Shown here piece by piece: positions 9,804 to 53,204 of a stretch of DNA of 64,000 bases. Location: contig JAUYNJ010000001.1 in assembly GCA_030696105.1 (NCBI GenBank), positions 66,747 through 130,746 on the forward strand, written 5' to 3'. Under the pieces are notes generated by a model. It searched no databases. It saw only the letters and a list, made by a program, of their open reading frames with translations, and was not told where the DNA came from. Both the position numbers and the translations under genes were made by a program. Position 1 is the first letter of the stretch. Every line of letters begins with the position of its first letter. The DNA is from a bacterium. Lineage in GTDB: Bacteria > Patescibacteriota > Patescibacteriia > Patescibacteriales > UBA12465.

Positions 9804-9885
9804 AGACAGCGCTTAAACAGTGTTAATAGATAGATATTGACGACTGCCCTAATTCCCGATAGAATAGTTTCCATTGGGAATAAAC

Positions 9886-9958
9886 GGGCCCTTAGCTCAT
9901 CTGGTAGAGCACCTGCTTTGCAAGCAGGGGGTGGCAGGTTCGAGTCCTGTAGGGTCCA
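9886..9958 (+). tRNA. tRNA-Ala (anticodon TGC)
   Basis: A manual cloverleaf fits: acceptor GGGCCCT/AGGGTCC with the G3:U70 identity pair, anticodon loop TTTGCAA, T-loop GGTTCGAGTCC. CCA is not encoded. Confidence 0.9.
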
Positions 9959-11447
9959 CCTTACGAGATTTGGCATTAGCCAAGTCTCTTTTTGTTTCTA
10001 ATATTGGCGATAATTTCGGAGTTTGAAATGTGTAAAAATTAAAAGAGGGCTTTTCTTTAAAAATCGAACTCTGAACTTTGAGTTTGGTGGCATAATCGGC
10101 CTTTTCATAAAAGTCCGGCAGATCACACATCAAATCAAAAACCTTATCAATATTCTTTTTAACGTCAAAACCATCGTCTTTACAATTCAAGAGTCTTTCC
10201 TGTTTATCGGATAGCATAATTTTTACTTTATCCATTTCTTCCCTAAAATCTTCATCGTCTAATAACTCCTTTTTCTTCATCTCAATTAATTTGTCTTTTT
10301 CCGCTTTCAGATTTTCCAATTGCGACTTGAGCAAACCGAAATTGCTATGTATCTCATTCTTTCTCTCATCATAAACCTCGATAATCGCTTTTTTAACGGC
10401 CTTGGCCATATAAGGCTGAAAACTAATCTTTTTTAAACCGAGTGAAAAATTATCTTCTACTTCTTTTTTAGTAATTGATTTTAACTGACCGCATTTTTTG
10501 TTATAACATTTATAATAGGGGTATTTAATACCCATTTTGCCGGTTGAAAAACAAGCGGTTAGCGGACTGCCACAATGCGGACAAACTACAAAATGCCTTA
10601 GAGGAAAACTTTCGTTAACTCGACCTAAAGAAATACAGTCGCCCTTATCGGCATTTCTAAATAATTTCTGACACTGCCAAAAAATTCGCTCATCAATAAA
10701 TTTTTCATGACTGCCGGCATATTCTTGACCCTTAACCGTCATAATCCCGATATAGAATTTTTCTCGGAGTAATTCGTGGAGCGTTTGCAAAGTTAACTCC
10801 CGGCCTTTATGCGTTCTAAACCCTTTATCATTTAACATCTTTCTGACTTGTTCAATTTGATATAAGCCGGTCGCAAATCGCTCAAAAGCTAATTTGATTA
10901 AAGGCATACGAACCTTATCAAAGATTATCATCGCTTTATTTTGAGCGTCTCGAGCGTTTAAATAGCCAAAGGGGGCTTTAAAACACCAAACGCCCTGTTT
11001 TATCCGTTCGTGCATACAAGAGGAGATTCTCTCACTCCTAACATCATTATCAAACTGGGCGACCGAGGCAACGATCGTCCCGACTAATCGACCGCTCGGC
11101 GTCTCATCAACCGTTTCCGTCGTCGATATAAACTTAATTTTAAGTTTATAGAGCGACGCCAGAATGCCAGTATAGTCATTAACATTACGAGACAAGCGGT
11201 CAATTTTATAAACAATCACACAATCAAGATTCTTGGTATTCTTTACACAGTATTTTAATAATTCTTTTAAGCCCGGCCGTTCAATAGTTTTTGCCGATAC
11301 GCCGTCATCGTGAAATAGTTCGACAATTTCAATATCATGCTTGAGAGCGTATTCCAAGCAAGCGTTTTTCTGTTGTTCTAAACTAACACCGGATTGAGCC
11401 TGATCTTCAGTCGAAACCCGGTAATAGATAATTCCTTTTTTAGTCAT
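9897..11447 (-). CDS. large serine recombinase (integrase) 1
   Basis: The product starts MTKKGIIYYRVSTEDQ (catalytic Ser region), then YKIDRLSRN, a recombinase domain, a Cys-rich zinc ribbon (CPHCGSPL...YYKCYNKKC) and a coiled coil. Start set at ATG 11447. The last ~20 codons run antisense through tRNA-Ala. Confidence 0.85.
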   Translation of the reverse strand: MTKKGIIYYRVSTEDQAQSGVSLEQQKNACLEYALKHDIEIVELFHDDGVSAKTIERPGLKELLKYCVKNTKNLDCVIVYKIDRLSRNVNDYTGILASLYKLKIKFISTTETVDETPSGRLVGTIVASVAQFDNDVRSERISSCMHERIKQGVWCFKAPFGYLNARDAQNKAMIIFDKVRMPLIKLAFERFATGLYQIEQVRKMLNDKGFRTHKGRELTLQTLHELLREKFYIGIMTVKGQEYAGSHEKFIDERIFWQCQKLFRNADKGDCISLGRVNESFPLRHFVVCPHCGSPLTACFSTGKMGIKYPYYKCYNKKCGQLKSITKKEVEDNFSLGLKKISFQPYMAKAVKKAIIEVYDERKNEIHSNFGLLKSQLENLKAEKDKLIEMKKKELLDDEDFREEMDKVKIMLSDKQERLLNCKDDGFDVKKNIDKVFDLMCDLPDFYEKADYATKLKVQSSIFKEKPSFNFYTFQTPKLSPILETKRDLANAKSRKVDPTGLEPATPCLQSRCSTR

Positions 11448-11637
11448 AAATTTAAAATTAATAAAAAGAGAGCAGTAAACTGTTGGACACAATTAAGCAA
11501 ATACTCAATTGAAACAGTCACTGCTCTCTTTATCTCAAAACGACATCTCGCCGTCATTATGACTTGAGTAAATATTTGCTATATTAATTGTGTCCATTAA
11601 GGATATTAGCATAAATTCTCTTTTTTACAAGATTAAG

Positions 11638-11790
11638 CTACATTAAGGTCGGATTAATATGGCGTTTATAATACTCAAAAGCCAAATAAGCTAATTGATA
11701 CAAATCACGGCTAACTTCCATTAATTGAGCGTCGGTATATTCAGAGGATTTCGGGCCGACCAACTCTTTCATTTTTTCTAGTGTTAACAT
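11638..11790 (-). CDS. small hypothetical protein (50 aa), paralog of 11816-11965
   Basis: My own translation gives MLTLEKMKELVGPKSSEYTDAQLMEVSRDLYQLAYLAFEYYKRHINPTLM. It falls below the ORF-track size cutoff and shares its pattern with the adjacent small ORF. Confidence 0.45.
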   Translation of the reverse strand: MLTLEKMKELVGPKSSEYTDAQLMEVSRDLYQLAYLAFEYYKRHINPTLM

Positions 11791-11815
11791 ATATTTTATT
11801 GATTATTTTTTATAT

Positions 11816-11965
11816 TTATTTAAATAAGTTAGGATTTTGTTGATGGATATCAAAGGCGAGATGAGCAAAGGCGTAAATATCGTGCCTTATTTCTTCAAGC
11901 TCTTCTTCGGAAAACCGCTTAGCACGACTTCCCAGCAGTTTTCGCAGAGCCTCTAAGCTCATCAT
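11816..11965 (-). CDS. small hypothetical protein (49 aa), paralog of 11638-11790
   Basis: My own translation gives MMSLEALRKLLGSRAKRFSEEELEEIRHDIYAFAHLAFDIHQQNPNLFK. It shares the L..L.G...S/T.E.L.E..D.Y.A.LAF pattern with its neighbour. Confidence 0.45.
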   Translation of the reverse strand: MMSLEALRKLLGSRAKRFSEEELEEIRHDIYAFAHLAFDIHQQNPNLFK

Positions 11966-12020
11966 TCAATTCCGAAAAATGTCTGCAGAACATTTTAATT
12001 AGTGAATTAAAATGTCTTTG

Positions 12021-12875
12021 TTAAAAGACAATATCATCTATATTCAGTTCTTTGTTTTTTGTTGTTTTTTCTGATTTATTATTTTTAATAATTTTATCTA
12101 ATTCTTCGTTGTTTATTTCGTTTATTTTATAAATGGTTTCTTTTATTTGACCTAAGCGGTCGCTGTAGAATTCCCGTTCTTTAATCAGATCTAAAGAATC
12201 GGGGCTAAAGAAGTCTAAGAAATTGTCCACCTCGTCTGGGTAGTCGATTATTTCCGGTTGATTAAGATTTTTTGAATAGAAAAATTTTCGTTTCTTGAAA
12301 TATCTCGGATCGAACATTTCCTTGCTTAAATATTTCGAGATATAAATACCGATATTCTTGGCGTTGTTAATAGGCCTAAAATTAATAAAACCATTTTTCC
12401 AGTATTTGTCGGCAAACCACCGTTCATATTCTTTTCGCTTATCACCAGTTTCAAATTCCGGCAGAGGGTAATTAGAGACTAAATGATAATGGACTCTTTT
12501 CGACTGCGGCTGAAATTCGGGAACGGCTAAATATTGAAAATCATTTTGGCCATAACTGATCCGCTTAATAAAGCGGTCAAAATATTTATTGGCTGTTTTT
12601 AAATCCAATATTTCGTCTTTGAACGTCAGCGTCAAAAAAGTTTTGAGTTGCGGATTAGAATTAATTAGACGAGTTATTTTCTGTCTGGCTCGCTTAACAT
12701 TATCTTCTCTAATTTTAATCTGCTCCGATTCTAAGCGAATATGCTTAAATTCAGGGCGATGAATTTTCCGATACTGTGGCCAACCGACCCAATATGATTT
12801 CTCATACTCAAATATCTCAATAATATTTCCAGACTTGATGATTTTTTTCTTGACCTCGTAAGGTAAACTATCCAT
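12021..12875 (-). CDS. HUH-superfamily rolling-circle replication initiator (Rep)-like protein
   Basis: Three RCR Rep motifs occur in the canonical order: FLTLTF (motif I), HYHLV (HUH, motif II) and YISKYLSKE (catalytic Tyr, motif III). Confidence 0.7.
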   Translation of the reverse strand: MDSLPYEVKKKIIKSGNIIEIFEYEKSYWVGWPQYRKIHRPEFKHIRLESEQIKIREDNVKRARQKITRLINSNPQLKTFLTLTFKDEILDLKTANKYFDRFIKRISYGQNDFQYLAVPEFQPQSKRVHYHLVSNYPLPEFETGDKRKEYERWFADKYWKNGFINFRPINNAKNIGIYISKYLSKEMFDPRYFKKRKFFYSKNLNQPEIIDYPDEVDNFLDFFSPDSLDLIKEREFYSDRLGQIKETIYKINEINNEELDKIIKNNKSEKTTKNKELNIDDIVF

Positions 12876-13023
12876 GCGCTTTTTATTATTGTCTTAGATT
12901 AATAACTTGTTTTTTCGACTCGTGTAATATGAGTGAATAATCAAGTTATTTATTAAGTTTTTAAAGTGCTGGCTCGGGCGTTAGCAGAACGCCCTCGCTT
13001 TTGTTTCTTTTATGCCTTATCCG

Positions 13024-13090
13024 GCCATTCCGTTTTTCGGCCCGGCTCCCCCACGGGGGATCCGCCGGGTCCGAAAAAACGGAAAATGGC
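13024..13090. repeat. nested hairpin/cruciform element, copy 1 (core GGCTCCCCCACGGGGGATCCGCC)
   Basis: Arms gccattccgtttttcggcccggc and gccgggtccgaaaaaacggaaaatggc pair around the inner palindrome TCCCCC-ac-GGGGGA. The core recurs at 20618-20641. Confidence 0.8.
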
Positions 13091-13183
13091 GAGAAAAGGG
13101 GCGATATAAACAAAAAACCATAAGCTTAGTGTTTATGGTCTTATGATAACGAATTGAGTTGTAGCAATATATACCCGCTAAAA

Positions 13184-13858
13184 TTATTTTGCTTGTCCGG
13201 TCAATTTCTTTGAATAATCGAGAAGTCTTTTAACAATTTTAGCAATATCTTGATAGCCGAGAATTTTGTCCGGGTATTTCTCGTTAATTATTGAGGCTAT
13301 TTCCTTATCTTTCTTGCCGTTTTGGCGTAATTGATATATTTCCAAGTCTCGACCAACATTAACTCGTGGCGAGGCTTTTAGGGGCTTAGAATCGGACAAT
13401 CTAACGACCGCCTGTCTTATTTCATTCCAGTTTTTTTGCAGTTCGGTTATGGTAGTTTCCGGGTTTAAACGGATAACCGTAAATTTTTCTTTGGGGTTAG
13501 ATGGATTTTCGATATTAAAAGGATAAAGCTCCTCAGACAAGCCGAAATAACTAATAATATCTCTCTGTTCAATAAAATCTTTTAGTGAAGTCTGATAAGC
13601 CGGCGACAAATGATATTTTAATCTCAAATCGGAAACGGCTTTATTGTAGTTATTCGTAAATTGATGAATATCGTCTAAACTTTTTATTTTGATTGTTGTT
13701 TTTATAGATTCAGACGAATTAATATGATCTTCCATTCCTTCGCCAGCAACATATAATTTAACTATCGGAACATTTTCTCGAATATATTGGATGTCGGCTC
13801 TAAAATTCTCATTAGTAATATAAATTATATAGAGATTTTGATAAAAATTAGAGGACAT
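13184..13858 (-). CDS. hypothetical protein with a possible C-terminal HTH, third gene of the ATPase/RloB operon
   Basis: There is an 8-nt gap after the RloB-like gene on the same strand. The C-terminus RDLEIYQLRQNGKKDKEIASIINEKY is HTH-like. A hairpin plus T-run terminator follows at 13112-13139 on the minus strand. Confidence 0.4.
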   Translation of the reverse strand: MSSNFYQNLYIIYITNENFRADIQYIRENVPIVKLYVAGEGMEDHINSSESIKTTIKIKSLDDIHQFTNNYNKAVSDLRLKYHLSPAYQTSLKDFIEQRDIISYFGLSEELYPFNIENPSNPKEKFTVIRLNPETTITELQKNWNEIRQAVVRLSDSKPLKASPRVNVGRDLEIYQLRQNGKKDKEIASIINEKYPDKILGYQDIAKIVKRLLDYSKKLTGQAK

Positions 13859-13865
13859 AAAAATT

Positions 13866-14510
13866 TTATTTTTTACTATCCCTAATTAATCTATTAATCT
13901 CTTCTACCAAAAAATGAATACTAGTTGACGGATTCCCTTTGGCACTCAAACTATTCTGCCAATTAATTTTTTCATAATCGGGCACTATGTCTTTAGCATT
14001 TTTAATTGCTTGTTCTTGGAATGGTAGTAATATTTGAAAAATTTCTTGATTTTTTTGAAATTTACCTAACTTATTTTTCTTAAAGGCCTCAATAATTTTC
14101 TTTTCAATATCTTCGCCCCTGCAAATTTGACAATTCGGTTTTTCAAAATGAAGCAAAATCCAAAGTTCGAAACATTCATTGACGTAAGCAATCTTAATAT
14201 TATTATTCACGGCATTTTTAATCGCCGCTAAAAGCTTCTCGCCATCATTCTTATAAAAATCATCAACATCAAAAATACACCACACCTGATCGCCGTCGTC
14301 TTCGGAAACTTTAACTTTTTTCCACTCTACAATTTTTTCTAATAATTCTTGCGGAGTCCAGTAAAGTTTTTTATCTGGCATCAATAAAGGAGTTTTCAAA
14401 TAATTCTTAAATTCTTGAAAATACTCTATCTCTGCCCGCATTGTATGCGACCAAACAAAAATTTTTGGGTGAGCTTCACGATGTTTAGTTTTACCTCTAT
14501 ATTGCGCCAT
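13866..14510 (-). CDS. RloB-like (Toprim-related) protein, AbiLii-like
   Basis: KIFVWSHTMRAEIEYF aligns with the RloB N-terminal (I/V)xCEGxxTExxYF block, though the CEG is degenerate. VWCIFDVDDF matches the DxD block. The gene abuts the upstream ATPase gene. Confidence 0.6.
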   Translation of the reverse strand: MAQYRGKTKHREAHPKIFVWSHTMRAEIEYFQEFKNYLKTPLLMPDKKLYWTPQELLEKIVEWKKVKVSEDDGDQVWCIFDVDDFYKNDGEKLLAAIKNAVNNNIKIAYVNECFELWILLHFEKPNCQICRGEDIEKKIIEAFKKNKLGKFQKNQEIFQILLPFQEQAIKNAKDIVPDYEKINWQNSLSAKGNPSTSIHFLVEEINRLIRDSKK

Positions 14511-14511
14511 A

Positions 14512-15810
14512 TTATTTTGAAAATTTTAAATCTTCAAAATCCGAAATATATGGCAAAGCATTATACCTACCCTCTAGATATCTTTTAGCAAAATCTACAC
14601 CCTTTCTTTCAGATATATCTGATAATGAGAATAATTCAGTTGCCCCTTTTTCGTTTTTCTCTGTAAAATAAATTTGATCACGGCGAAGAAAATCCTCACT
14701 CATAAGAGATGTATCGTGGGTAGCAAAAACTAATTGAGCATTATTTGGATTCTTGTCCTTCGAATTAAAAATTGAAATTAAGTACTGACAAAGTATCGGA
14801 TGGAGGCTTGCATCAATTTCATCAATAAATAAAATTTTTCCATTATCCAGTGTATCAATTAATGGGGCGGATAAAGCGAACATATGCTGAGTACCATTCG
14901 ATTCTTCATTAAAGAAATCAAACGGCTCACTCTTTAATTCTTCTTCATTATTGCCAAATTTTTTATGTAAAAACCTAATGCTACGCTCGGCTATTTTGGA
15001 ATCTTCTTTAAAGAATAACTCTTTAAATTTATCCGGCATATTCTGAATTTGCTTGGCGGAAACCATTTTTTCACTCGCCTCAATATTCATAACACCAAAA
15101 TCAGCTTTAACAATAAAATCTTTCATTTTTTTAGCCATACTGGGGTTATTCAAGAATTGACCGAATGAATAATTCAAAGTATCACCACTATTTGCATCCA
15201 GTATTAAATTTGTATTCTTCACAAATTCAACAATTTTTTTGGATATCGGTTGGTTATTACTAGAAAGGACTGACAGAAACAAAACTCGCTCGCCAGTATT
15301 ATTTTTTAAAGCCGCTGATGCCTCTTGAAAATAATTCTTATTACTTTCAATTTTTTGACCATCCCTTTCAAACAAGGTTTTCTTGCCCTTTTCTTGCTTT
15401 AACCATTCCGTGCATATTTTTTTCTTGTCCATTTCAAACCCATAACTAAAAACTTCGCCATCAAGCAAAAAGGTCATCTCAAAAAACGTGGGCTTATTTT
15501 CAGTTTCTGAACTTAACTTAAAATATTCATTAGGCAAATCAACTGCGACATTACTTCGAAGTAATGACTCTAAAACCATCATACGAAAAACAAAAAAGGA
15601 TTTAAGAATATTACTCTTGCCCGATGCATTTGGGCCATAAATAGCCACCGATTTTAACAATGATTTTTTACCACTTTCAAAAACTGCATTTGATTTCATT
15701 GTTTCGTCGCTTGTAGCACATAGATCAAGTATAATCTCATCTTTAATTGAACGAAAATTTTTAACCTTGAAAGTTAACAACATATTTTTATATATTGAAT
15801 TATTATTCAC
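14512..15810 (-). CDS. AAA_21/ABC-type P-loop ATPase, AbiLi-like defence ATPase
   Basis: Walker A (GPNASGKSN), Walker B (ILFIDEIDASLHP) and C-terminal ATHDTSLM are present. The gene is paired with the RloB-like gene. Confidence 0.7.
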   Translation of the reverse strand: MNNNSIYKNMLLTFKVKNFRSIKDEIILDLCATSDETMKSNAVFESGKKSLLKSVAIYGPNASGKSNILKSFFVFRMMVLESLLRSNVAVDLPNEYFKLSSETENKPTFFEMTFLLDGEVFSYGFEMDKKKICTEWLKQEKGKKTLFERDGQKIESNKNYFQEASAALKNNTGERVLFLSVLSSNNQPISKKIVEFVKNTNLILDANSGDTLNYSFGQFLNNPSMAKKMKDFIVKADFGVMNIEASEKMVSAKQIQNMPDKFKELFFKEDSKIAERSIRFLHKKFGNNEEELKSEPFDFFNEESNGTQHMFALSAPLIDTLDNGKILFIDEIDASLHPILCQYLISIFNSKDKNPNNAQLVFATHDTSLMSEDFLRRDQIYFTEKNEKGATELFSLSDISERKGVDFAKRYLEGRYNALPYISDFEDLKFSK

Positions 15811-15816
15811 AATTCA

Positions 15817-15845
15817 ATATTAGCAAACTATTTTCCAAAAGTCAA
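15817..15845 (-). promoter_or_regulatory. sigma70-like promoter for the ATPase operon (TTGACT-17-TAATAT), with a perfect 15-bp palindrome just upstream at 15853-15867
   Basis: On the minus strand, the -35 is at 15845-15840 and the -10 at 15822-15817. The palindrome TGACAAATATTGTCA lies directly upstream. Confidence 0.5.
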
Positions 15846-15975
15846 GACTTTATGACAAATATTGTCAAAAAAGAGATAAAAATGGAAATATTTACCTAAT
15901 TTAGTCATTTTTATTGAAATATTACCACAATGATTTCTTTCTAAATAGAGTCTAATTATAAAAAATAATAAAAAT

Positions 15976-17121
15976 TTAGTCCTTAATCTTTCTTGTTATT
16001 ATCACACCATTATCGATTGGCAATGTATAAGAGGTAACTCTTCTATCACTTTGAGAATTTGGCAATTTTGTGCCTAATACTTTATCAAGATAATCTTTCA
16101 TCATATGTCCGTAGTCAAAAACATTATCTGCTATAATAAAGCCGCCATTTTTTAACAAAGGCATAAATAACTCAAAATATTTTCCATAATTTTCTTTATC
16201 AGCGTCTAAAAAAATTAAATCTAATTTTTTTATTTTCCCTGACTTTAATATTTCCATAGCATCACCCTCCAACAAATCTATATTATTGAGTTTTGCTTTT
16301 TTAAAATTACTTTTAGCTAACTTTATTTTTGGTTTTAATTTTTCAATAGTATTTACTCTTCCTTTATTATAACGAGCTCCCATAGCCAAATACAGAGTAG
16401 AATAACCGGCCGAAGTGCCAATTTCTAATATATTTTTACTCTTTGTCGCAACGGCCATAAATTCTAAAAGTTCGGCGGTAGTCCTCGGCACAGACCATAA
16501 TTTAATCGTCTCACCAACAACTTTTTGTCCAAATTGTTTTTCATTGCCATTATATTTATATTCCCAATTGGTTTCTATTTTTTCAATTGATTCAGCTGTT
16601 AAAATTATACTCTTATTATCCCTTAAATTATTTATAATATTTAAGACCTGAGGATTGTATTTATAATTCAACTTCTCCAACACCTCTTTGGTGAATTCGA
16701 TTGCTTCGTTCGAGTTCCAATTCTCCATAAAAAAATCATAATAGTGCTTAAACAAAGCGATATTATTAATCTCAACTATAAACGGTTCCGGCCTCCAACC
16801 TAATTGCAATATTTTATTCTTTGTAATTACCAAGCCAACCGGAATATTAAAGTTTTTAAATTTTAATTTTAAATTGTTATTATCAGAATAAGTTTCGCCT
16901 GCTGTTATTTCTAATTTTTTATTGAAAATAGCTCGATCATCAATTTTTTTCTTAGCGAGGCTCAAATGAAATTGTTTAAAAAGTTTTTTAATTTCTGGGC
17001 TTTGATATTCATTCTGAAATGCAAAAGCATAATAAAAATCACCCGCCGTAAGTTCTTTTTCAAGCAAAGAATAATAATCAATAAACTGTTTTTTACCAGA
17101 AATGGTATTTATTGTTTTCAT
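15976..17121 (-). CDS. fusion protein: N-terminal TrmB-C-terminal-like domain plus class I SAM-dependent O-methyltransferase (family 3-like)
   Basis: OMT motifs ILEIGTSAGYSTLYLA and DLIFLDADKENY are present. The N-terminal ~140 aa is paralogous to the C-terminal ~110 aa of the upstream-encoded 593-aa protein. Confidence 0.7.
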   Translation of the reverse strand: MKTINTISGKKQFIDYYSLLEKELTAGDFYYAFAFQNEYQSPEIKKLFKQFHLSLAKKKIDDRAIFNKKLEITAGETYSDNNNLKLKFKNFNIPVGLVITKNKILQLGWRPEPFIVEINNIALFKHYYDFFMENWNSNEAIEFTKEVLEKLNYKYNPQVLNIINNLRDNKSIILTAESIEKIETNWEYKYNGNEKQFGQKVVGETIKLWSVPRTTAELLEFMAVATKSKNILEIGTSAGYSTLYLAMGARYNKGRVNTIEKLKPKIKLAKSNFKKAKLNNIDLLEGDAMEILKSGKIKKLDLIFLDADKENYGKYFELFMPLLKNGGFIIADNVFDYGHMMKDYLDKVLGTKLPNSQSDRRVTSYTLPIDNGVIITRKIKD

Positions 17122-17127
17122 AGATGT

Positions 17128-18909
17128 TTATTTATATTTTTTATCCCAAATTTCATTAAAGTAATTTTTGTAGCTCTCAACTATTTTAATATCCTTAATT
17201 TCAAATGCCGATGGCTTTGATCCCCACAAAAGATTAATAATCCTGTCATTTAGAATGATAACACCATTTGGGATTTCTTTTTTTGTTGCTTTAATTTGGA
17301 TATTCTTATTACTACTATAGGCAAGGTTTAAGGCCGACAAAGTTTCTTGACGACAAATTGCTCTATCCTCGATTGATTTATCGGCCAACTTTTTATGAAC
17401 ATCTGATAACAAATCACGAACTGCCGGATCTAAATATTCAGAATTAAAAGCAAAAGCCGAATAAATATCTTCTTTAGTTAAACTGTTTACAATATTTTCG
17501 AATAACTTTTTAAATTCTGTCGTCCCCTCATAAATAACTTCCGCCTCCCTATAAAAAAATGGATATTTTTCACCTTTCAAAAAAACCGGAATATATTTTC
17601 CACTACTTAACAATTCGCTCTCATAATGAACAGACACTTCGCCATTATTTTTTAATACGCCCACGCCCATCCATGGTAATAAATGTGTTTTTCTTTTAAC
17701 TAAGAAAATACCGATATGACCCTCCTTGGGATGAACTGTTAAGCGGATGCCTCCCGGTACTAGTAAATTAAAGAAATCAGCTTTCTCTAAAGCGTGTTGA
17801 ACGACCATATATTCAAAAGCGCATTTTTCCGCTCTTTCGTTAATTTCTTTTTTCTTTTCCTTTTCCACATCGCTTAAATCCCAATCTTCTAAAAAGTTAA
17901 TTCTATATAAAAACTTAAATGAAGCATCTGACAAATTAATATTTTGTTTTGCTGACTGGATTATCTTTTGAACTTTTTCATTGTTAAATTTTGTAGTTTG
18001 CCATAAATTAGTCATTTCTGCCCTCGCTTCATCATAAATTGTTGAAAAGTTTTTAATCTTTTTCAACTCTTCAAGAGCGTCTTTTAAAATAATCACTTCC
18101 CCAAGATTTAGTTTCCTAACAATATCTTTCAGAGATTTAAAATATCTTTCTGCGTCTTCTTTTTCATGTAAAAAATGCCGGTAGTAAAGGTGCCCGTCAT
18201 GAAAAATGGTAAATTTTGCTCCCGGTTTATAAATTATCTTAATTTGTAAATTGATTTCATTCAACTTACAAAATGAACCGATCTCGGCTAAGTCCGCATC
18301 CCTTCTTGATGATTTCAACGGATTAGCAATTTTAAAAGGAAAGGCCGGGAGCATAAAATTTATCGGCTCTTTTTTATCAATAAAATAATTAATCTTTTTT
18401 AAAATATCTTCTTTATATTTTTGCAAATTAATTGTTTCTAAAGAACCATTTCTGTATTTAGGAGAAGTAATTATATGCAATATTTTTTCTGCTAAATCTT
18501 TGCAACCATTAAAATCTTTTTCATTAAAATAATTAATTTGAGTATTAAATGTTCTTAAAAATTTTTGGTAATCAAATTTAATAATTTCTTCTCTTTGTAA
18601 ATTTTGATAATTATAATAATTTTCTTTTATATTCTCACTTATTTTTTCATAAATTGTTCCCGTCATGTCTATTCTGGTTAAATCATAGTCCGACGGTAAA
18701 ACTACATTTTCCACTTCTTGCTCATAGCCAGCTTTATTTAATAAATTCAAAATTTCCGTTTTTTGATATTTCCTATCTCTTCTTACGCCGAATCTAATAG
18801 CCTTTAAAAGGCCTTTTTGTTCCCAAAGTCTAAGCGTATTTGGATGACAATTTAATAATTCGCTCGCCTGCTTTAGGGTTAATAATTTGGACGTTATGTC
18901 TTTTTTCAT
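17128..18909 (-). CDS. three-domain protein: MerR/excisionase-type HTH, DIT1/PvcA-family (isonitrile-synthase-like) domain, TrmB-C-terminal-like domain
   Basis: The HTH is LTLKQASELLNCHPNTLRLWEQKGLL. The PvcA-like blocks are MLPAFPFKIANPLKSSRRDADLAEIGSF...YKPGAKFTIFHDG and GGIRLTVHPKEGHIGIFL...LLPWMGVGV. The tail ends NLLWGSKPSAFEIKDIKIVESYKNYFNEIW. Confidence 0.7.
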   Translation of the reverse strand: MKKDITSKLLTLKQASELLNCHPNTLRLWEQKGLLKAIRFGVRRDRKYQKTEILNLLNKAGYEQEVENVVLPSDYDLTRIDMTGTIYEKISENIKENYYNYQNLQREEIIKFDYQKFLRTFNTQINYFNEKDFNGCKDLAEKILHIITSPKYRNGSLETINLQKYKEDILKKINYFIDKKEPINFMLPAFPFKIANPLKSSRRDADLAEIGSFCKLNEINLQIKIIYKPGAKFTIFHDGHLYYRHFLHEKEDAERYFKSLKDIVRKLNLGEVIILKDALEELKKIKNFSTIYDEARAEMTNLWQTTKFNNEKVQKIIQSAKQNINLSDASFKFLYRINFLEDWDLSDVEKEKKKEINERAEKCAFEYMVVQHALEKADFFNLLVPGGIRLTVHPKEGHIGIFLVKRKTHLLPWMGVGVLKNNGEVSVHYESELLSSGKYIPVFLKGEKYPFFYREAEVIYEGTTEFKKLFENIVNSLTKEDIYSAFAFNSEYLDPAVRDLLSDVHKKLADKSIEDRAICRQETLSALNLAYSSNKNIQIKATKKEIPNGVIILNDRIINLLWGSKPSAFEIKDIKIVESYKNYFNEIWDKKYK

Positions 18910-18943
18910 AAAAATTGATATTTACTTAACAATACATACCAAT

Positions 18944-18972
18944 AGTATACAATACTTAATAACATTTGTCAA
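18944..18972 (-). promoter_or_regulatory. near-consensus sigma70-like promoter (TTGACA-17-TATACT) for the HTH-PvcA-like/OMT operon
   Basis: On the minus strand, the -35 is at 18972-18967 and the -10 at 18949-18944, about 35 nt upstream of the start at 18909. Confidence 0.55.
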
Positions 18973-19033
18973 GAACGAGAAAAATCATTATTTAAAAACC
19001 CCGCCCAATACTTAATTTCCTCAATAATTTCGT

Positions 19034-20542
19034 CTAAAGAGTTGGAAATCCGTTTTTTAACGACCACATTAAGTCAAGACTCCCATTTTGGGGGTCTTTT
19101 GCGAATAAGGAATAAGGCTCTTTAAATTTAATATTAGTTATTTTTCCGTCTTTAACTTCAGCGTTCCAAAGTATATTTTTTATTATTTCTCTTTGTCTAT
19201 TAGGTTTAGCTTCTAAAAACTTATTTTTCATTGCCTGTTGGGCTAAAAATAAGTTTTTGACTTGTTCCAAAGTGATTTTAGCTAGTGGCTGATTTTTGTT
19301 CTCTAATGATTTTAATTCCTCATTTAATAAGTTCAGCTCGTCAGCTATCGTCTTTCGCTTGGCCTCAAAATCGTCCTTGTTAATGGCTTTATCTAATAGC
19401 AGGTTAAATAGTTCAGCTTGTCTGTCCTCTCTAATTTTGAGCCGTTTTGAGAGTTCGTTTTTAGTTCTAAGATATTCTTGATTCTCTGATTCCTGTTTTA
19501 ATTTATCTAGGCTCGCCTCATACATTAAATTAATCATTTCTTCGGGAAAAGTTAATCGCTCAAAAACATCAGCCAACATTTTAATAGCCTCGTCTTCTTT
19601 TAAATAACTCTTATGCTCCTCGCATTTATTTCTGCCATTAGTACAGTAATAGTAAATATGTTTGCCCCTCTTTTTACTGGCGGTATATAGACAACCACAA
19701 CGAGCGCAAACCATTAATCCCCGGAAAATAAAGTCTAAGCGATTCTTTTTAACATGCTGTTTTTTGTGCGCCATTTCTTGCGCCTCTTCAAATAGCCTTT
19801 TAGTGATTATTGGTTTATGGCTCCCTTGATACTCCTCGCCATGAGATGTCATTACCCCATAATAGAATTTATTGTTTAGCAAAGTATATATTTGCGACTT
19901 ATGGTATTTATTACCGCCCCGGCTTTTTAACCCGGACAGATATATTTTATTTGCTATTTCTTTAATCGTATAATTACCGCCGATATACATAGTAAATATT
20001 TGCTTAACATAGGGCGCTCGTTCCTTATCTACTAAAATTCCGCCCTTACCATCATTTAAATAACCAATCGGAGCGATACAAGGCCAGCCGCCTTTTTCCA
20101 GTTTAGTCCTTAATCCTCGTTTAACATTTTTACTCAAATCTAAAATATACTGGTTAGCCATTGAGCCCTCAATGTTTAGCAGTAAAACATTATCACTCGG
20201 CAAATATTGTTTATCGCTCGTCTGAATCACTTTGATTTTAGACTGCTGTAATAGCCATTGAATTTTTCCGCTGTCTATCGGATTTCTAGAGAGCCTATCT
20301 ATTTTCCAACATAATATTCCATAGCCCTCGGCTTCATTATTATTTTCTAACAGTTTAAGCATCTCTAAAAACACAGGCCGATTATTTGGCAGTTTAGCCG
20401 ATTTACTTTCCGTATATATTTTAGCAATTTCCAAACCTAAACTATGAGCCAGTTTTTTCATCTCGTTTACTTGGCTTTCCAGGGATAGTATTTGTTTGCT
20501 CTTGTCTTCACTAGACTTACGAGCATAGAGAATATATTTCAT
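19034..20542 (-). CDS. large serine recombinase (integrase) 2
   Basis: The product has MKYILYARKSSEDK, WKIDRLSRN, a recombinase domain, a zinc ribbon (CARCGCLYTA...YYYCTNGRNKC) and a coiled-coil tail. It is highly divergent from recombinase 1. Confidence 0.85.
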   Translation of the reverse strand: MKYILYARKSSEDKSKQILSLESQVNEMKKLAHSLGLEIAKIYTESKSAKLPNNRPVFLEMLKLLENNNEAEGYGILCWKIDRLSRNPIDSGKIQWLLQQSKIKVIQTSDKQYLPSDNVLLLNIEGSMANQYILDLSKNVKRGLRTKLEKGGWPCIAPIGYLNDGKGGILVDKERAPYVKQIFTMYIGGNYTIKEIANKIYLSGLKSRGGNKYHKSQIYTLLNNKFYYGVMTSHGEEYQGSHKPIITKRLFEEAQEMAHKKQHVKKNRLDFIFRGLMVCARCGCLYTASKKRGKHIYYYCTNGRNKCEEHKSYLKEDEAIKMLADVFERLTFPEEMINLMYEASLDKLKQESENQEYLRTKNELSKRLKIREDRQAELFNLLLDKAINKDDFEAKRKTIADELNLLNEELKSLENKNQPLAKITLEQVKNLFLAQQAMKNKFLEAKPNRQREIIKNILWNAEVKDGKITNIKFKEPYSLFAKDPQNGSLDLMWSLKNGFPTL

Positions 20543-20603
20543 ATTGGTTAAATGATTAGCTATTCAGATTCCTGTCTAATTATAAGTTCTTTTAAACAAG
20601 GAT

Positions 20604-20657
20604 AACTTTTTCTTTTCGGCTCCCCCTCCGGGGGATCCGCCGAAAAGAAAAAAAGTT
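20604..20657. repeat. nested hairpin/cruciform element, copy 2 (core GGCTCCCCCTCCGGGGGATCCGCC)
   Basis: Arms aactttttcttttcggc and gccgaaaagaaaaaaagtt pair around the TCCCCC..GGGGGA palindrome. The core matches copy 1, but the outer arms differ and remain self-complementary. Confidence 0.8.
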
Positions 20658-20720
20658 TATTCCTTGGTTAATAGAGAAATCAGATAAAAAGAAAGAATCT
20701 TAATACTACTATTATATGGA

Positions 20721-20910
20721 AACGACTTGCACCATCTTGCATGCAAGACTGAATCCCATATTTTATTGTATTTATTGGCTTTTTTATTGGTTTAGCACCA
20801 TTACCTTATTAGTATAGAGAATCGGTCTTGTACTATCTTGTATACAAGATATAAATTAAAGTAATCCTGTTTTTATTGGTCTTTTTATGCTATTTTGTAC
20901 CATATTAGGC
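20721..20910. repeat. two diverged ~100-bp tandem units, each with a 12-bp palindrome (CTTGCATGCAAG / CTTGTATACAAG) and TTGyACyAT motifs; iteron- or operator-like
   Basis: By manual alignment, cgacttgcaccatcttgcatgcaagac matches cggtcttgtactatcttgtatacaagat. Each unit also has ttattggc(t)ttttttat and a terminal g(c/t)accat. The palindromes are at 20736-20747 and 20837-20848. Confidence 0.65.
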
Positions 20911-20915
20911 CGGGC

Positions 20916-20944
20916 TTGACATTAATTGACAAAAATGCTATAAT
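20916..20944 (+). promoter_or_regulatory. perfect consensus sigma70-type promoter TTGACA-17-TATAAT
   Basis: The -35 is at 20916-20921 and the -10 at 20939-20944. It reads into a ~115-nt leader with a 12-bp inverted repeat (20983-20994 / 21025-21036), then the ORF at 21065. Confidence 0.6.
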
Positions 20945-21064
20945 TTAGTCATTAAAATGGTTCGTTTACAAATAAGGTTAAATTTGATTAATTACCAAGT
21001 TCGTCTGAAATTAGGTGAATTTAGTAATTAATCAAATAATTATTAATCTTAAAAAAAGGAAGTC

Positions 21065-21592
21065 ATGAAAAAAGGAGTTATTATTATTTCGTTTGTTATC
21101 GCAATTCTTTGCGGTTCTATGGTGTATTTTTATCTTTCAACAAATAAAAATACGGAAATTAAAAAAAATCCAGAAAAGGTTGTTCTTACAAAAAATGTTG
21201 GTATGGAAAATCCTATTGTTATAAAATATTCTGAATACAATGGCCAGCCAATTGAAATTGTGTATGATTCAATCCAGAAAAGAATAAGCCTTCGTGTTCA
21301 CGAAGATTACGTATGCGGTGGCGATAAAGAGTTGCAGGTATTAAAAACAAAAGTATCCGAAATCTGTACCAGTGAAAAAATTATTACCATAGGTAATAGC
21401 GGGTATAGTTTATGCTTTTTGGGCGGGTTTCCAGAATGGAGCCCATATCACTCCCTTGGACCTAATTATTCTAACGCCTGTTTGCTTTTCTCTAGCAAAA
21501 CAACCCTAAAAAACAAAGTTTTTTATATTACAGGCGAAAATAATAAAAGAGGGTATTATCCTTATGCCGATTCAGTGGGAACGACATTATAG
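21065..21592 (+). CDS. membrane-anchored or secreted hypothetical protein (island cargo)
   Basis: N-terminal hydrophobic helix MKKGVIIISFVIAILCGSMVYFYL, an AGGAAG ribosome-binding site upstream, and AT-rich composition like the island. Confidence 0.5.
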   Translation: MKKGVIIISFVIAILCGSMVYFYLSTNKNTEIKKNPEKVVLTKNVGMENPIVIKYSEYNGQPIEIVYDSIQKRISLRVHEDYVCGGDKELQVLKTKVSEICTSEKIITIGNSGYSLCFLGGFPEWSPYHSLGPNYSNACLLFSSKTTLKNKVFYITGENNKRGYYPYADSVGTTL

Positions 21593-21605
21593 TTTAAAAG
21601 AGCTA

Positions 21606-21636
21606 AAGGAAGTCTATCAACGACTTCCTTTTTTAT
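21606..21636 (+). terminator. intrinsic terminator
   Basis: Stem AGGAAGTC / GACTTCCT followed by a T-run. Confidence 0.6.
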
Positions 21637-21800
21637 TTGTCTAAAGCTATAATATCAACATATCTATTATTAACGAGCCATGTTCCTAAATCGTACCAGG
21701 CTCCCCACGTAATAAAAATAACTCCACCTGCGTGGAGTTGTTTGTTAACAGCATTAGATTCAGCCTTTTAAAAAAGCCGTAATAATTTTACGGCTTAAAA

Positions 21801-30512: not shown

Positions 30513-30831
30513 GCCTCGGTAGCTCAGTGGTAGAGCAAAGGACTGAATTTCGGTCCGCCCATTGGAAACGGTGGGATGAAAATCGGGTGAATTCGGGGAA
30601 GCCTTAAGCTATTAGCAAAGGTAATCCCGAGCCAAGTTTTGGTCGGGTTTAAGACCAAAAAAGGTGTAGAGACTAGCGGGTGAGCCCAACAATAACCCCG
30701 CCGCGAGCGCCCGACTCCGCCCTTTATTCAATCAGAATAAAACGGAGATGATATAGTCCAATCCTTAGGGAAACCTAAGCTCTGATATAGGAAAATCCTT
30801 GTGTCGTCAGTTCGATTCTGACCCGGGGCAC
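30513..30831 (+). tRNA. tRNA-Phe (anticodon GAA) interrupted by a group I intron between positions 33 and 34
   Basis: Exon 1 (30513-30544, GCCTCGGTAGCTCAGTGGTAGAGCAAAGGACT) and exon 2 (30792-30831, GAAAATCCTTGTGTCGTCAGTTCGATTCTGACCCGGGGCA) join into a canonical tRNA-Phe cloverleaf. Confidence 0.85.
30545..30791 (+). ncRNA. group I intron (IC3-like) in the tRNA-Phe anticodon loop
   Basis: The 5' exon ends in U, which pairs as G.U in P1 (exon GGACU with internal guide GGUCC). The intron ends in G. Core blocks AAUUCGGGGAAGCCUUAAGC, GAGCCAAG and AAGGUGUAGAGACUAG resemble the Azoarcus/cyanobacterial tRNA introns as I recall them. Confidence 0.8.
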
Positions 30832-31173
30832 AAAAGCGTTAGACAAAAGAATGAACCCATGATAAATTGACTACGTAGGGTTCATTTTTTTACGAGAAGC
30901 GATAAATTAGAGGCAATTGAATTAAGGAAAAGGGGGTTCACTTACAGTCAAATAAGCGACAAGCTTGGCGTAGCCAAAAGCACGCTCAGCGTTTGGCTAA
31001 AAGATCTTATCATCGACGAGTCGTCAGCAAATAAGATAAGAAGTCATATTTTTTCAACGCGAATTTCAAAGTTAATAGAAAGAAATAAAGAGCGCTCATT
31101 AATTACGAAAGAAGGACACGCTAGAATTCGCTCTCAAGCATTCCTAGAAGCCAGCAAATACTATAAAGACCCC

Positions 31174-51473: not shown

Positions 51474-51662
51474 AATGGTGTCTTTTGGTTCCACCCCAAT
51501 TTATATTAAGGTGGATATTTTGTTGTGTCTTTGAAAGACAAAAGTGTGGGAAAATCAAACGACTTATTAGTACTGCTCCGCTCAATCCATTACTGGACTT
51601 ACACGTACAGCCTATCAAGGTCATATTCTGTAACCAGTCTGTGAAACCTAATCTTAGAGACA

Positions 51663-51693
<31 letters not shown>

Positions 51694-51840
51694 TTAACCG
51701 AAGGTAGCTACCCTGCAATGCCCTTGGTAGAACAGCAGGTACACTAGAGCTTCGTCCTTCCCGGTCCTCTCGTACTAAGGAAGGGCCTCTTCAAGTTTCC
51801 ACGACCACAGTGGATAGGAGACCGACCTGTCTTACGACGG

Positions 51841-51893
<53 letters not shown>

Positions 51894-51903
51894 GCTTCTC
51901 CAC

Positions 51904-51936
<33 letters not shown>

Positions 51937-52424
51937 GAACCAGGTCGTCGATGTGGACTCTTGGACCTGACTAGCCTGTTATCCCCGGAGTAGCTTTTAT
52001 CCGATGAGCTTCCACCATCCTATATTGAATGGTCGGATCACTAAGTTCCGCTTTCGCGACTGCTTGACCGGTAAGTCTCGCAGTAAAGCTGGCTTGTGCC
52101 TTTACACTATCTCCCGGGTTTCCATTCCGGGATAGCCAACCTTTGTAAACGCCTCCGTTACATTTTGGGAGGCATCCGCCCCAGACAAACTACCCACCAG
52201 ACACTGTCCCTCGTAAAAACGAGGTTAGAATTAAAAATATACAAGGGTGGTATCTCACTGGCGCCCGAAGGCTCCCACCTATTCTGAACATGCATATCCC
52301 TAATTCAATATCAAGCTGTAGTAAAGCTTCACGGGGTCTTTTCGTCCGACTGTGGTTAACGAGCATCTTTACTCGTCTTGCAATTTCACCGAGTCCTTCG
52401 CTGAGACAGTGCTCAAGTGGTTAA

Positions 52425-52467
<43 letters not shown>

Positions 52468-53204
52468 CTTCACTTACTTAATATTTCTATTAAGAATGGA
52501 CTTTATCTTACTCGTGACATGAATCTAACGCCCGCAAGACTGATTGAGCGCAAATTTTATTTTGCCTGTTCATTCTCGAAGCGATAGCGATAATGTCTTT
52601 AATACCTTCAGCAGAAAGATGCTTGCCGGCATTCATTATCTGTATAATCTCCTTAAATTTGAAATAATCAAATTTCTTTTGAGTTAAAAGCGGATATTTG
52701 TCGAAATGAGGAATGACAAATTTATTCATATGCTCTAACGATCTTATTCTAAGCTCCTGACGTGTATCATGATTAATCCTGACAACGCCAGCGCCGAAAT
52801 ATGTTTTAAGCGCATACAACACTTTAATATCCTTCTCATGCTGGACAACTCTAAATTCTGGTAATACTTGATAACCGGACTTCATTGAATCATTATGATT
52901 AATTCCAACATAGAAAGTTCCCTCACCATCTACAAATCCACTTACCCAATAGGGATTCATTTGCATATTTTAGAGTCTCAGTTTTTAAGTCTCTGAGGAT
53001 TATTAATCCTGCGCGTTTGCCCCGTGTATTGATAGATTTTTACTGGGGTCGACACCCCGAGTACTATCAATCTTTTGAGGATTTTCACGCATTTTACTGA
53101 GTATTTTAGACAACCATGGCTTTCGCCATAGCTAGGCAACGAACTTTGTTATTTATCAATTTATAATCGTCCCAGTCTTTTGCGGTCTAGTAATAAACCA
53201 CAAA
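52468..53204 (-). mobile_element. group I-like intron in 23S rRNA carrying a homing endonuclease gene
   Basis: The insertion splits the universally conserved ...ACTATAATCGTCCTAAGGT | AGCGAAATTCCTTGTCGGGTAAGTTCCGACC... The 5' exon ends in U and the intron ends in G. A CAGAGACTT J8/7-like block precedes the ORF. Confidence 0.8.
52508..52966 (-). CDS. single-motif LAGLIDADG homing endonuclease (intron-encoded)
   Basis: WVSGFVDGEGTFYVGI is a LAGLIDADG motif. The 152-aa ORF lies wholly inside the 23S intron. Confidence 0.85.
   Translation of the reverse strand: MQMNPYWVSGFVDGEGTFYVGINHNDSMKSGYQVLPEFRVVQHEKDIKVLYALKTYFGAGVVRINHDTRQELRIRSLEHMNKFVIPHFDKYPLLTQKKFDYFKFKEIIQIMNAGKHLSAEGIKDIIAIASRMNRQNKICAQSVLRALDSCHE

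Follow-up and report, generated by a model that had tools for sequence, protein, structure and literature searches.

Two long hairpins with a common GC-rich apex lie in a low-GC island of a 64-kb stretch of a Patescibacteriota contig (JAUYNJ010000001.1), which we refer to, in its full length, as the window. We found that the core GGCTCCCCC(N)GGGGGATCCGCC is present twice in the window, both times on the + strand, and that each occurrence caps an imperfect hairpin of 70–95 nt. Each hairpin belongs to its own mobile element, one with and one without a gene for a rolling-circle replication protein (Rep), and related loci carry hairpins of the same family. Our preferred reading, which we hold tentatively and at slightly less than an even chance, is that the hairpin is a lagging-strand origin working as folded single-stranded DNA (ssDNA), and that it represents a new type resembling the single-strand origins (sso) of rolling-circle replication (RCR) plasmids.

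Hairpin structure and family

Across both copies the core reads GGCTCCCCC(A or TC)CGGGGGATCCGCC and is 23–24 nt long, with copy 1 (GGCTCCCCCACGGGGGATCCGCC) at 13044–13066 and copy 2 (GGCTCCCCCTCCGGGGGATCCGCC) at 20618–20641, both on the + strand. These are the only matches in the window, and shuffled sequences are expected to contain none, which bears out the shared core reported in a preliminary description of this DNA. A covariance model of the family, run on the window, likewise returned only these two hairpins (84 and 82 bits). The hairpins of the preliminary description are thus real, but they stretch further than first drawn, to about 13009–13105 for hairpin 1 (arm class A) and about 20583–20679 for hairpin 2 (arm class B). 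Hairpin 1 lies in the first element, E1, between the terminator-like end of the open reading frame (ORF) ORF224 and the Rep origin, ~135 nt 5' of the Rep ATG. Hairpin 2 lies in the Rep-less mini-element E2, ~60 nt 5' of the ATG of recombinase 2, so that both copies stand upstream of the genes originally named. Folding z-scores ranged from −4.9 to −7.6 for both copies, on both strands and with DNA or RNA parameters, and no shuffle equaled them. Neither hairpin has a T-run on its 3' side; on both strands a T-run precedes the stem and an A-run comes after it. A terminator scan made no call at either copy, and an intrinsic terminator, defined as a GC stem with an immediate T-run, was rejected for both, in agreement with the original view that these are not ordinary terminators. 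Hairpin 1 occurs with the same neighbors in L004, L005, L037, L040, L079, and other related loci.

Relatives were fetched by scanning genomes and metagenomes for the exact core pattern; high-GC matches were treated as chance, and ~88 low-GC loci were kept. These come from Patescibacteria metagenome-assembled genomes (MAGs), MAGs labelled Gammaproteobacteria, an 895-kb closed chromosome, and groundwater and bioreactor metagenomes. They represent 65 distinct variants, which fall into six or more arm classes; the basal stems of these classes have no sequence in common, yet each is self-complementary. In an alignment of 32 sequences, standard pairs filled 96.6% of cells, compared with 83.5% in shuffles and 50%–72% with slid partners. 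Compensatory changes on both sides were seen in 12 of the 25 pairs, and the covariation score was 0.351 versus 0.138. Rep-less members of class B additionally show coordinated insertions in the two arms (T+A or C+G). The arms of the two window copies, which are unlike in sequence and self-complementary inside each copy, had been suspected of covarying, and this pattern holds across the 32 family variants.

The hairpin is asymmetric throughout the family. Read in the + orientation of the window, it begins with a variable basal stem, a T-run, a C, a further T-run or GC, CGGC, and TCCCCC, and continues through a loop of 2–4 nt to GGGGGA, a TCC bulge, GCCG, a purine run, an A-run, and the basal stem. 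The A-run exceeds the T-run by 1–3 nt in every member, and the 3-nt bulge is constantly on one side. With an aligner that treats all non-Watson-Crick pairs alike, 303 bulged nucleotides fell on the 3' arm and 26 on the 5' arm. The free loop length and the one-sided bulges together suggest a folded single strand and argue against a symmetric duplex operator. A count based on minimum-free-energy folds (G:U 101 versus 59) had favored the + strand, a preference that was lost with an unbiased arm aligner, in which G:T and A:C mismatches were equally frequent (16 each). The lack of a G:U excess gives no support for RNA and favors neither strand. A search of Rfam 15 gave no match at the gathering threshold, and permissive E-values returned weak, generic microRNA-hairpin noise (15–24 bits, compared with cut-offs of 70–107). 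With no Rfam family and no G:U excess, the structured RNA motif considered in the preliminary description is not supported.

A protein-binding DNA site could also account for a conserved apex. The hairpin would then be bound, as duplex or cruciform, by the serine recombinase, a directionality factor, or a regulator, and might, for instance, serve the excised circle as an accessory site or as a switch that responds to supercoiling. Among protein genes, only that of the recombinase is present in every element, and the apex sequence is strongly conserved rather than covarying. AT-rich flanks favor cruciform extrusion and may do so here. However, the two recombinase types are ~31% identical and still share the apex, one-sided bulges and a center of 2–4 nt break the dyad spacing that a dimer needs, and the hairpin is found away from the element ends, unsplit by integration. 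A site of this kind seems quite improbable to us.

The orientation of the hairpin is fixed. Read in gene direction, the core is GCGGATCCCCC..GGGGGAGC, and the next gene that way, in loci with enough sequence, is either Rep, with a large serine recombinase after it, or the recombinase itself. A comparison of the core with Rep and recombinase genes in related genomes, as proposed in the preliminary description, thus gave a uniform picture, with all ~88 loci oriented toward one or the other. More than half of the loci are Rep-less. Genes on the other side are variable cargo, except for ORF224-like genes in class A and in Rep-bearing class B elements. Between classes that have the apex in common, identity is only ~31% for Rep and for the two recombinase types, and one apex shared by such divergent elements fits the target of a host factor. 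Variant cores found with the covariance model have the same polarity as the family. The hairpins of two outgroup loci (L159 and L163) keep architecture and polarity with a different apex, and they score better on the same relative strand.

A generic intergenic repeat, similar to repetitive extragenic palindromes or miniature inverted-repeat transposable elements, or else an unusual terminator, would have no specific link to mobile elements. The hairpin is palindromic and intergenic, as such a repeat would be, and it is multi-copy inside some genomes. Yet the 64-kb window has just two copies, both inside elements, the association with Rep or recombinase genes is 100% and of fixed orientation in ~88 loci, and the hairpin has no T-tail, with canonical terminators nearby. 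We consider this explanation the least probable of all and close to negligible; the link to the Rep and recombinase genes of the mobile island made in the preliminary description holds. The contigs of L024, L027, L034, L063, L066, L070, L100, L105, L111, L117, L121, and L142 start or stop inside the hairpin, which is most simply explained by assembly breaks at a palindrome or repeat, so that these elements would often be fragmented in public assemblies.

Tandem elements and the Rep nick motif

GC content falls to 0.30–0.35 across ~10–22 kb of the window. Judged by comparison with related loci, this island consists of two independent elements arranged in tandem, and their insertion point follows the CCAC at the 3' end of a tRNA-Ala gene. 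E1 extends over 9960–19067 (9.1 kb) and E2 over 19068–21708 (2.6 kb), with junction CCAC sites at 9956–9959, 19064–19067, and 21705–21708. The left end of E1 comes after ..GGGTCCAC of tRNA-Ala(TGC) (9886–9960, + strand), where homology with L037 and L040 begins. At the E1/E2 junction (19060–19069), the right end of E1 (..AACGACCAC) meets the left end of E2 (ATTAAGTCAAGACTCC..). The same E1 right end is followed by host flank in L079 and L005, and the same E2 left end directly follows tRNA 3' ends in L056, L083, L098, and L116. At the right junction of E2 (21696–21709), CCAGGCTCCCCAC is followed by G, and CCAGGCTCCCCAC next to host sequence is the conserved E2 end in 20 related loci; the flank beyond it (GTAATAAAAATAACTCCACCTGCGTGGAGTT) is the flank found after E1 in L005. 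The order is tRNA-E2-E1 in L130, where the left end of E1 comes after the right end of E2. Elsewhere, E2 ends abut the 3' ends of tRNA-Val, tRNA-Tyr, or tRNA-Ala genes or the end of another element. E2-type mini-elements (L029, L047, L056, L073, L082, L083, L087, L097, L098, L116, L130, L135, L145, and L148) are ~2.5 kb long, contain the recombinase, the hairpin, and 0.8–1.1 kb more, and lie after ..CCAC, in tandem arrays of either order. A tRNA-like duplication at the ends of E1 and E2 was rejected, as alignment of 9860–9990, 18965–19095, and 21620–21750 gave no real similarity beyond CCAC.

This junction mapping places each hairpin in the interior of one element, and the 7.6-kb stretch between the hairpins crosses the E1/E2 junction. 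It contradicts the original suggestion that the hairpins bound a 7.6-kb mobilizable segment. The alternative suggestion of recombinase sites is not supported either: the hairpins are intact inside the integrated elements, their central loop is 2–4 nt, and the junctions are CCAC sites, all unlike a large-serine-recombinase attachment site, which would be located at the ends, be split on integration, and have half-sites evenly spaced about a central dinucleotide. A partial copy of the hairpin (GGCTCCCCACG) had been placed at 21699–21709. This sequence exists, but it is the right end of E2, as in the 20 related loci, and not a hairpin fragment. Its 9-mer, allowing up to one mismatch, has 10 matches in the window versus 4.9 expected, which is within chance, and a third hairpin at this position was rejected. 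The excised-circle junction of E2 (GGCTCCCCAC joined to ATTAAGTC) was not found in the fetched loci; the corresponding E1 junction would be AACGACCAC joined to CTTACGAG.

The Rep of E1 (12021–12875, − strand) belongs to the Pfam family REP_ORF2-G2P and has the motifs FLTLTF, HYH, and YISKY. It is 30%–34% identical to the Reps of the plasmids pHT926 and pGTG5, of Fusobacterium and Bacillus plasmids, of Microviridae, and of an inovirus; a sequence search of PDB returned nothing. The putative double-strand origin (dso) of E1, its Rep nick region, lies at 12922–12948 on the − strand (TAACTTGATTATTCACTCATATTACACG; in full ATAACTTGATTATTCACTCATATTACACG, with AACTTGATTATTCAC), in the 5' arm of a third hairpin. 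Its nick motif AACTTGATTAT (12937–12948, − strand) is ~100 nt from hairpin 1, and TAACTTGAYTAT has no other exact match in the window. When the intergenic region of E1 is folded as ssDNA, it forms hairpin 1, a small hairpin (loop TCTGCTAA), and a third one that carries the nick motif. The motif aaCTTGAttat..cacacatctaac recurs 35–100 nt 3' of the hairpin in classes A, C, D, E, and F. In classes C and F, TTAACTTGACTATAGGCACAC lies in the loop of an 11-bp hairpin, and one or two copies of the motif persist in classes D and E, which have no Rep. The nick region aligns with the origins of pHT926 and pGTG5, of the inovirus-like loci L155, L156, and L160, and of L159 and L163. The site of phiX174 gpA is CAACTTG^ATA, which the nick motif resembles, and the two tyrosines in the YISKY motif of Rep would fit that superfamily.

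The leading idea of the preliminary description was that the hairpins themselves are Rep nick sites or origins that delimit the 7.6-kb segment. Copy 1 is indeed near Rep, and the two copies are direct repeats flanking cargo. However, the nick motif of this Rep family is found elsewhere, at 12937–12948, and is common to homologous plasmid and inovirus origins, and CTTGAT is absent from the hairpin, unlike nick sites or dso of the phiX174-pC194 type. Moreover, the loop is just 2–4 nt and variable, the element ends are CCAC junctions, the segment between the hairpins crosses the boundary of two elements, and hairpin types occur alone elsewhere. We regard this idea as very improbable. What stays plausible in it is the link to an origin; the hairpin as the nick site is not supported.

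Possible functions of the hairpin

The position of the hairpin 5' of the nick site, its fixed orientation, its asymmetry, its cassette-like shuffling, and the sharing of its apex together favor a second-strand (single-strand) origin. In this mechanism, Rep would nick AACTTG^ATTAT, with the long hairpin located 5' of the motif, abutting it in pHT926 and 35–100 nt off elsewhere. As folded ssDNA, the hairpin would be the lagging-strand (single-strand or minus) origin, at which host RNA polymerase or primase would start the complementary strand. Recognition would depend on the bulged GC apex (CGGC, TCCCCC-loop-GGGGGA, TCC bulge, GCCG), which is nearly invariant, and pairing alone would be required of the T-run/A-run and the basal arms. 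Retention of the hairpin by Rep-less elements such as E2 would then reflect replication in trans or entry into cells in single-stranded form. We infer the ssDNA working form, the priming of the second strand, the host factor that reads the apex, and the reason for retention without Rep.

In RCR plasmids, the sso lies mostly upstream of the dso, is orientation-specific, is served by host enzymes only, and limits host range (PMC4595007, PMC5714925, PMC5703833), and a functional sso has been described in an integrative element, ICEBs1 (PMC4595007). The hairpin is similarly found on RCR replicons just upstream of the putative dso in classes A, C, D, E, and F (35–100 nt 5' of AACTTGAYTAT). It shows extensive, imperfect single-strand structure, as seen in z-scores, covariation, and one-sided bulges, and its orientation in the sequence is the same relative to Rep, recombinase, and nick motif in all ~88 loci. 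In E1, copy 1 is flanked by two terminator-like structures. A stem (ACCATAA..TTATGGT) with T6 follows ORF224 (13111–13140, − strand, read directly) and ends ~10 nt before hairpin 1; it is kept in all class A loci and falls under the GC-pair threshold of the scan tool. A small hairpin, GGGCGTT-AGCAG-AACGCCC, with a T-rich tail (12976–13005, + strand; loop TTAGCAGA) lies between hairpin 1 and the nick motif, and its class C/F counterpart has the loop TTAGCAGT. These two structures converge on hairpin 1 and leave no space for a promoter, so that copy 1 seems to be shielded from transcription.

Several observations weigh against a single-strand origin. An sso has no evident use in the absence of an ssDNA stage, and the Rep-less majority of loci includes copy 2 of the window. 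Classes D and E retain a nick motif nearly identical to that of classes C and F and so could be replicated in trans by class C/F Reps, and such trans-replication of Rep-less elements is speculative. In class B there is no clear AACTTGA motif and the dso is unclear; the leader CCTTGTT-N7-ACATCTAA (also CCTTGTTAAAAAGAACATCTAA), common to Rep-bearing class B elements, could speculatively be a diverged dso. The hairpin does not correspond to an origin of the ssoA type, whose signatures are RSB (TTATGCCGAGAAAATTT) and CS-6 (TAGCGT) in the terminal loop (PMC4598088). Exactly one RSB-like feature was found, GCCGA with the purine/A-run in the 3' arm, which agrees with the RSB core at only 7–8 of 10 positions, and TAGCGT is absent. 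Part of the apparent invariance of the apex is built in, since the exact core served to retrieve the loci. Three extra members, found in tandem neighbors by the covariance model without the pattern, have the bulge ACC or TGCC in place of TCC and an apical stem of 5 bp in place of 6 bp. The unbiased wobble count favors neither strand, and a sigma-70 promoter was found neither by a scan in and around hairpin 1 nor by eye, the stems having no -35/-10 hexamers. Finally, conserved -10-like boxes (TATAAT/TATACT) lie upstream of hairpin 2 in E2, where transcription may include it in a 5' leader. No other non-coding stretch of 14 distinct E2-type elements is as well conserved as the hairpin with its adjacent leader, which in this respect surpasses the third-codon positions of the recombinase start.

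The region upstream of hairpin 2 contains two 26-nt units of the form CTTG-N4-CAAGAT-N3-RCAAG, at 20826–20851 and 20727–20752 (region 20708–20851, − strand). Each palindrome-containing unit (ATCTTGTATACAAGATAGTACAAGAC and GTCTTGCATGCAAGATGGTGCAAGTC) is followed at equal distance by TATACT or TATAAT, and unit 2 with its -10 box is conserved in relatives of E2. The units are putative operator or promoter units facing hairpin 2 and recombinase 2. Boxes and palindromic units in this place make a leader RNA a serious rival for E2. The hairpin would then belong to the 5' leader of the Rep/recombinase mRNA and affect its stability, processing (e.g., through an RNase III-type duplex), or translation, and recombinase would be kept low in the integrated state. 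The constant position of the hairpin, 60–200 nt 5' of the first backbone gene and in sense orientation, would suit such a role, as would its retention in elements whose sole backbone gene is the recombinase. In class A, however, the terminator-like hairpin and T6 leave no promoter space, and in classes C and F a strong hairpin lies just upstream. The origin motif stands between hairpin and gene in classes A, C, D, E, and F, and in homologous plasmids that do not integrate, a hairpin occupies the corresponding position with respect to the nick site. Neither the balance of G:U and A:C nor the Rfam search points to RNA. Overall, we think a leader RNA unlikely.

The closest Rep homologues place the elements near filamentous phages. 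Homologues with 46%–54% identity occur in integrated elements with a tRNA-ending serine recombinase and in 5.5-kb Zot-bearing contigs. The gene order in the integrated elements is small coat-like ORFs, a 551-amino-acid protein, Zot, a reverse gene of 105 amino acids, the intergenic region, Rep, small ORFs, and the serine recombinase. In the Zot-bearing relatives, the intergenic region has a hairpin and then AACTTGATTAT..CACATCTAACG. Homologues with 38%–45% identity (L159 and L163) belong to recombinase elements with restriction-modification cargo, and their hairpins have the same design of T-run, GC clamp, bulged apex, and A-run with the same polarity. These comparisons indicate that the element backbone is derived from replicons of the inovirus/RCR-plasmid type. 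As a separate observation, L155–L157, L160, and L161 are inovirus-like prophages and 5.5-kb genomes with Zot, coat-like small ORFs, a phiX174-type nick motif, and a tRNA-targeting large serine recombinase; their hosts are apparently of the Patescibacteria type.

With such relatives, the hairpin might be a packaging or transfer signal like hairpin A of the Ff phages, and the elements would be satellites packaged as ssDNA by a helper filamentous phage of Patescibacteria. In the Zot-bearing 5.5-kb genomes, too, the order is hairpin, origin, and Rep, and the structure here is strand-asymmetric. Core-bearing elements are without Zot and coat genes, as tblastn and phmmer searches of all core-bearing loci with the inovirus proteins of L156, Zot and coat among them, were negative. 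Rep-less derivatives keep the hairpin, as Ff miniphages retain the intergenic region. On the other hand, this apex is in none of the examined Zot-bearing relatives, whose hairpin sequences differ, and the exact core has 0 matches in a viral contig collection. A hairpin is present at this position in non-phage RCR plasmids, too, where the Rep is homologous, and Rep-less class B elements are without a recognizable nick motif for ssDNA production. We consider a packaging signal improbable.

The retention of the hairpin in Rep-less mini-elements suggests a satellite-like dependence between co-resident elements. In a bolder version, which we also think unlikely, the hairpin would be a Patescibacteria-specific ssDNA signal that defines unrecognized minimal satellites. 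These would be 2.5 kb long, with a serine recombinase, the hairpin, and a relic origin, would insert after the CCAC of many tRNAs and stack in tandem, and would depend on functions acting in trans for their replication, packaging, or expression. These could come from a filamentous phage or from a Rep element resident in the same cell; alternatively, the hairpin would be an ssDNA promoter that fires the recombinase only on entry as ssDNA.

Gene content and comparison with known replicons

E1 contains a serine recombinase, two small ORFs, the rolling-circle Rep, the origin region, ORF224, and AbiL with other cargo, and E2 contains a serine recombinase, the hairpin, a regulatory region, and a small cargo gene. 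On the − strand, the order is recombinase 1, the ORFs of 49 and 50 amino acids, Rep, (hairpin 1), ORF224, AbiLii, AbiLi, a methyltransferase, MerR-DIT1_PvcA, recombinase 2, and (hairpin 2). The E2 cargo gene ORF175 comes after hairpin 2 on the + strand and is faced by a perfect TTGACA-17-TATAAT promoter (20916–20944, + strand). The ORF of large serine recombinase 1 (9897–11492, − strand) runs antisense through the whole tRNA-Ala gene, and that of large serine recombinase 2 (19034–20542, − strand) crosses the left junction of E2 and ends 33 nt inside the right end of E1. Because these ORFs span the left junctions, the C-terminus of each recombinase differs between the integrated and the excised state. 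A related recombinase (L156, 6374–8098) ends in antisense tRNA sequence (..RDSNPRR..).

The two paralogous helical ORFs of 49 and 50 amino acids (11638–11790 and 11816–11965, − strand), between Rep and recombinase 1, have no family match and could encode a directionality factor or regulator. ORF224 (13184–13858, − strand) adjoins the hairpin and is conserved in class A, in Rep-bearing class B, and in L159. It has no match in Pfam, PADLOC, or PHROG, and a Foldseek search against PDB returned nothing; its AlphaFold model has a mean pLDDT of 64 and is confident only in a C-terminal three-helix bundle that resembles a helix-turn-helix. The E1 cargo (13866–18909, − strand) consists of an AbiLi/AbiLii defense pair, together with the methyltransferase and the MerR-DIT1_PvcA fusion protein with weak matches to mad1-3 (methylation-associated defense) models. 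The small hairpin near the Rep origin (12976–12994, + strand) has a conserved loop, TTAGCAG(A/T), and in classes C and F (e.g., L058 and L053) it lies on the opposite side of the big hairpin, with flanking TTTTGTTT inverted.

Outside the island, a tRNA-Phe(GAA)-like gene at 30514–30832 (+ strand), uncalled by ARAGORN, is split by a group I intron (Rfam Intron_gpI, 30536–30780; exons ~30514–30546 and ~30793–30832). Group I introns of this kind were recently described for Patescibacteria (PMC13011429). The 23S rRNA match at 51547–55371 (− strand) is 3825 nt long, ~900 nt in excess of the 2925-nt model, and holds an ORF of 152 amino acids (52508–52966, − strand); the excess could be an insertion, an intervening sequence, or an intron with an ORF. 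Overlong 23S rRNA genes and group I introns in tRNA genes are typical for Patescibacteria.

Literature searches on serine recombinases, rolling-circle replication, and inoviruses in Patescibacteria turned up no account of the hairpin or of these elements, and to our knowledge almost nothing is known of plasmid, phage, and island biology in this group (Candidate Phyla Radiation). Compact and easy to search for, the hairpin marks a large family of serine-recombinase elements that target tRNA genes, together with the mini-derivatives that have no Rep. The elements it marks carry defense cargo (AbiL, restriction-modification) and appear to descend from inovirus/RCR-plasmid replicons. If it is a lagging-strand origin, it would be a new sequence and structure type within a known kind of element, its invariant apex would lead to the recognition site of a host priming factor, and it could become a part for replicating or integrating vectors in these uncultivated bacteria.

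Several known systems have comparable hairpins. The ssDNA promoters and priming signals of DNA transferred by conjugative plasmids (Frpo/ssi) are bulged hairpins that are active only as ssDNA and are oriented toward downstream genes. Unlike them, the stem here has no recognizable -35/-10 hexamers, and conjugation genes are absent. In the Ff intergenic region, the order is hairpin A (the packaging signal), B and C (the minus-strand origin), D and E (the plus-strand origin), and gene II. Our elements share the layout of hairpin(s), nick site, and Rep, their Rep is in the Pfam family that includes gene II proteins, and close Rep relatives occur in Zot-bearing inovirus-like genomes. They differ in a nick motif that is phiX174/pC194-like (CTTG^AT) rather than Ff-like and in the absence of morphogenesis genes from the window elements.

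The Bacillota plasmids pHT926 (Brevibacillus) and pGTG5 (Geobacillus) have a homologous Rep (31%–32% identity) and the same AACTTGATTATAG nick motif 50–85 nt 5' of rep: pHT926 is numbered from AACTTGATTATAGCGACAC, 85 nt before rep, and pGTG5 has TTTACTTGATTATAGTG 50 nt before rep5. Both also have a long hairpin with a GC apex just 5' of the motif, which in pHT926 abuts it and has the apex GCCCCCC-GCA-GGGGGC. However, the sequence of their hairpin differs and is without the T-run/A-run frame, and they are free plasmids without a recombinase. The sso family (ssoA, ssoU, ssoT, ssoW, ssoL, and sso1 of ICEBs1) likewise consists of long imperfect hairpins in fixed orientation just upstream of the dso nick site (PMC4595007, PMC5703833). 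As in the present family, conserved patches are found across replicons with unrelated or divergent Reps, in a cassette with modular shuffling. What sets the hairpin described here apart from these sso is that its conserved part is a bulged GC apex between a T-run and an A-run, that its hosts are Patescibacteria, and that it is also carried by Rep-less elements.

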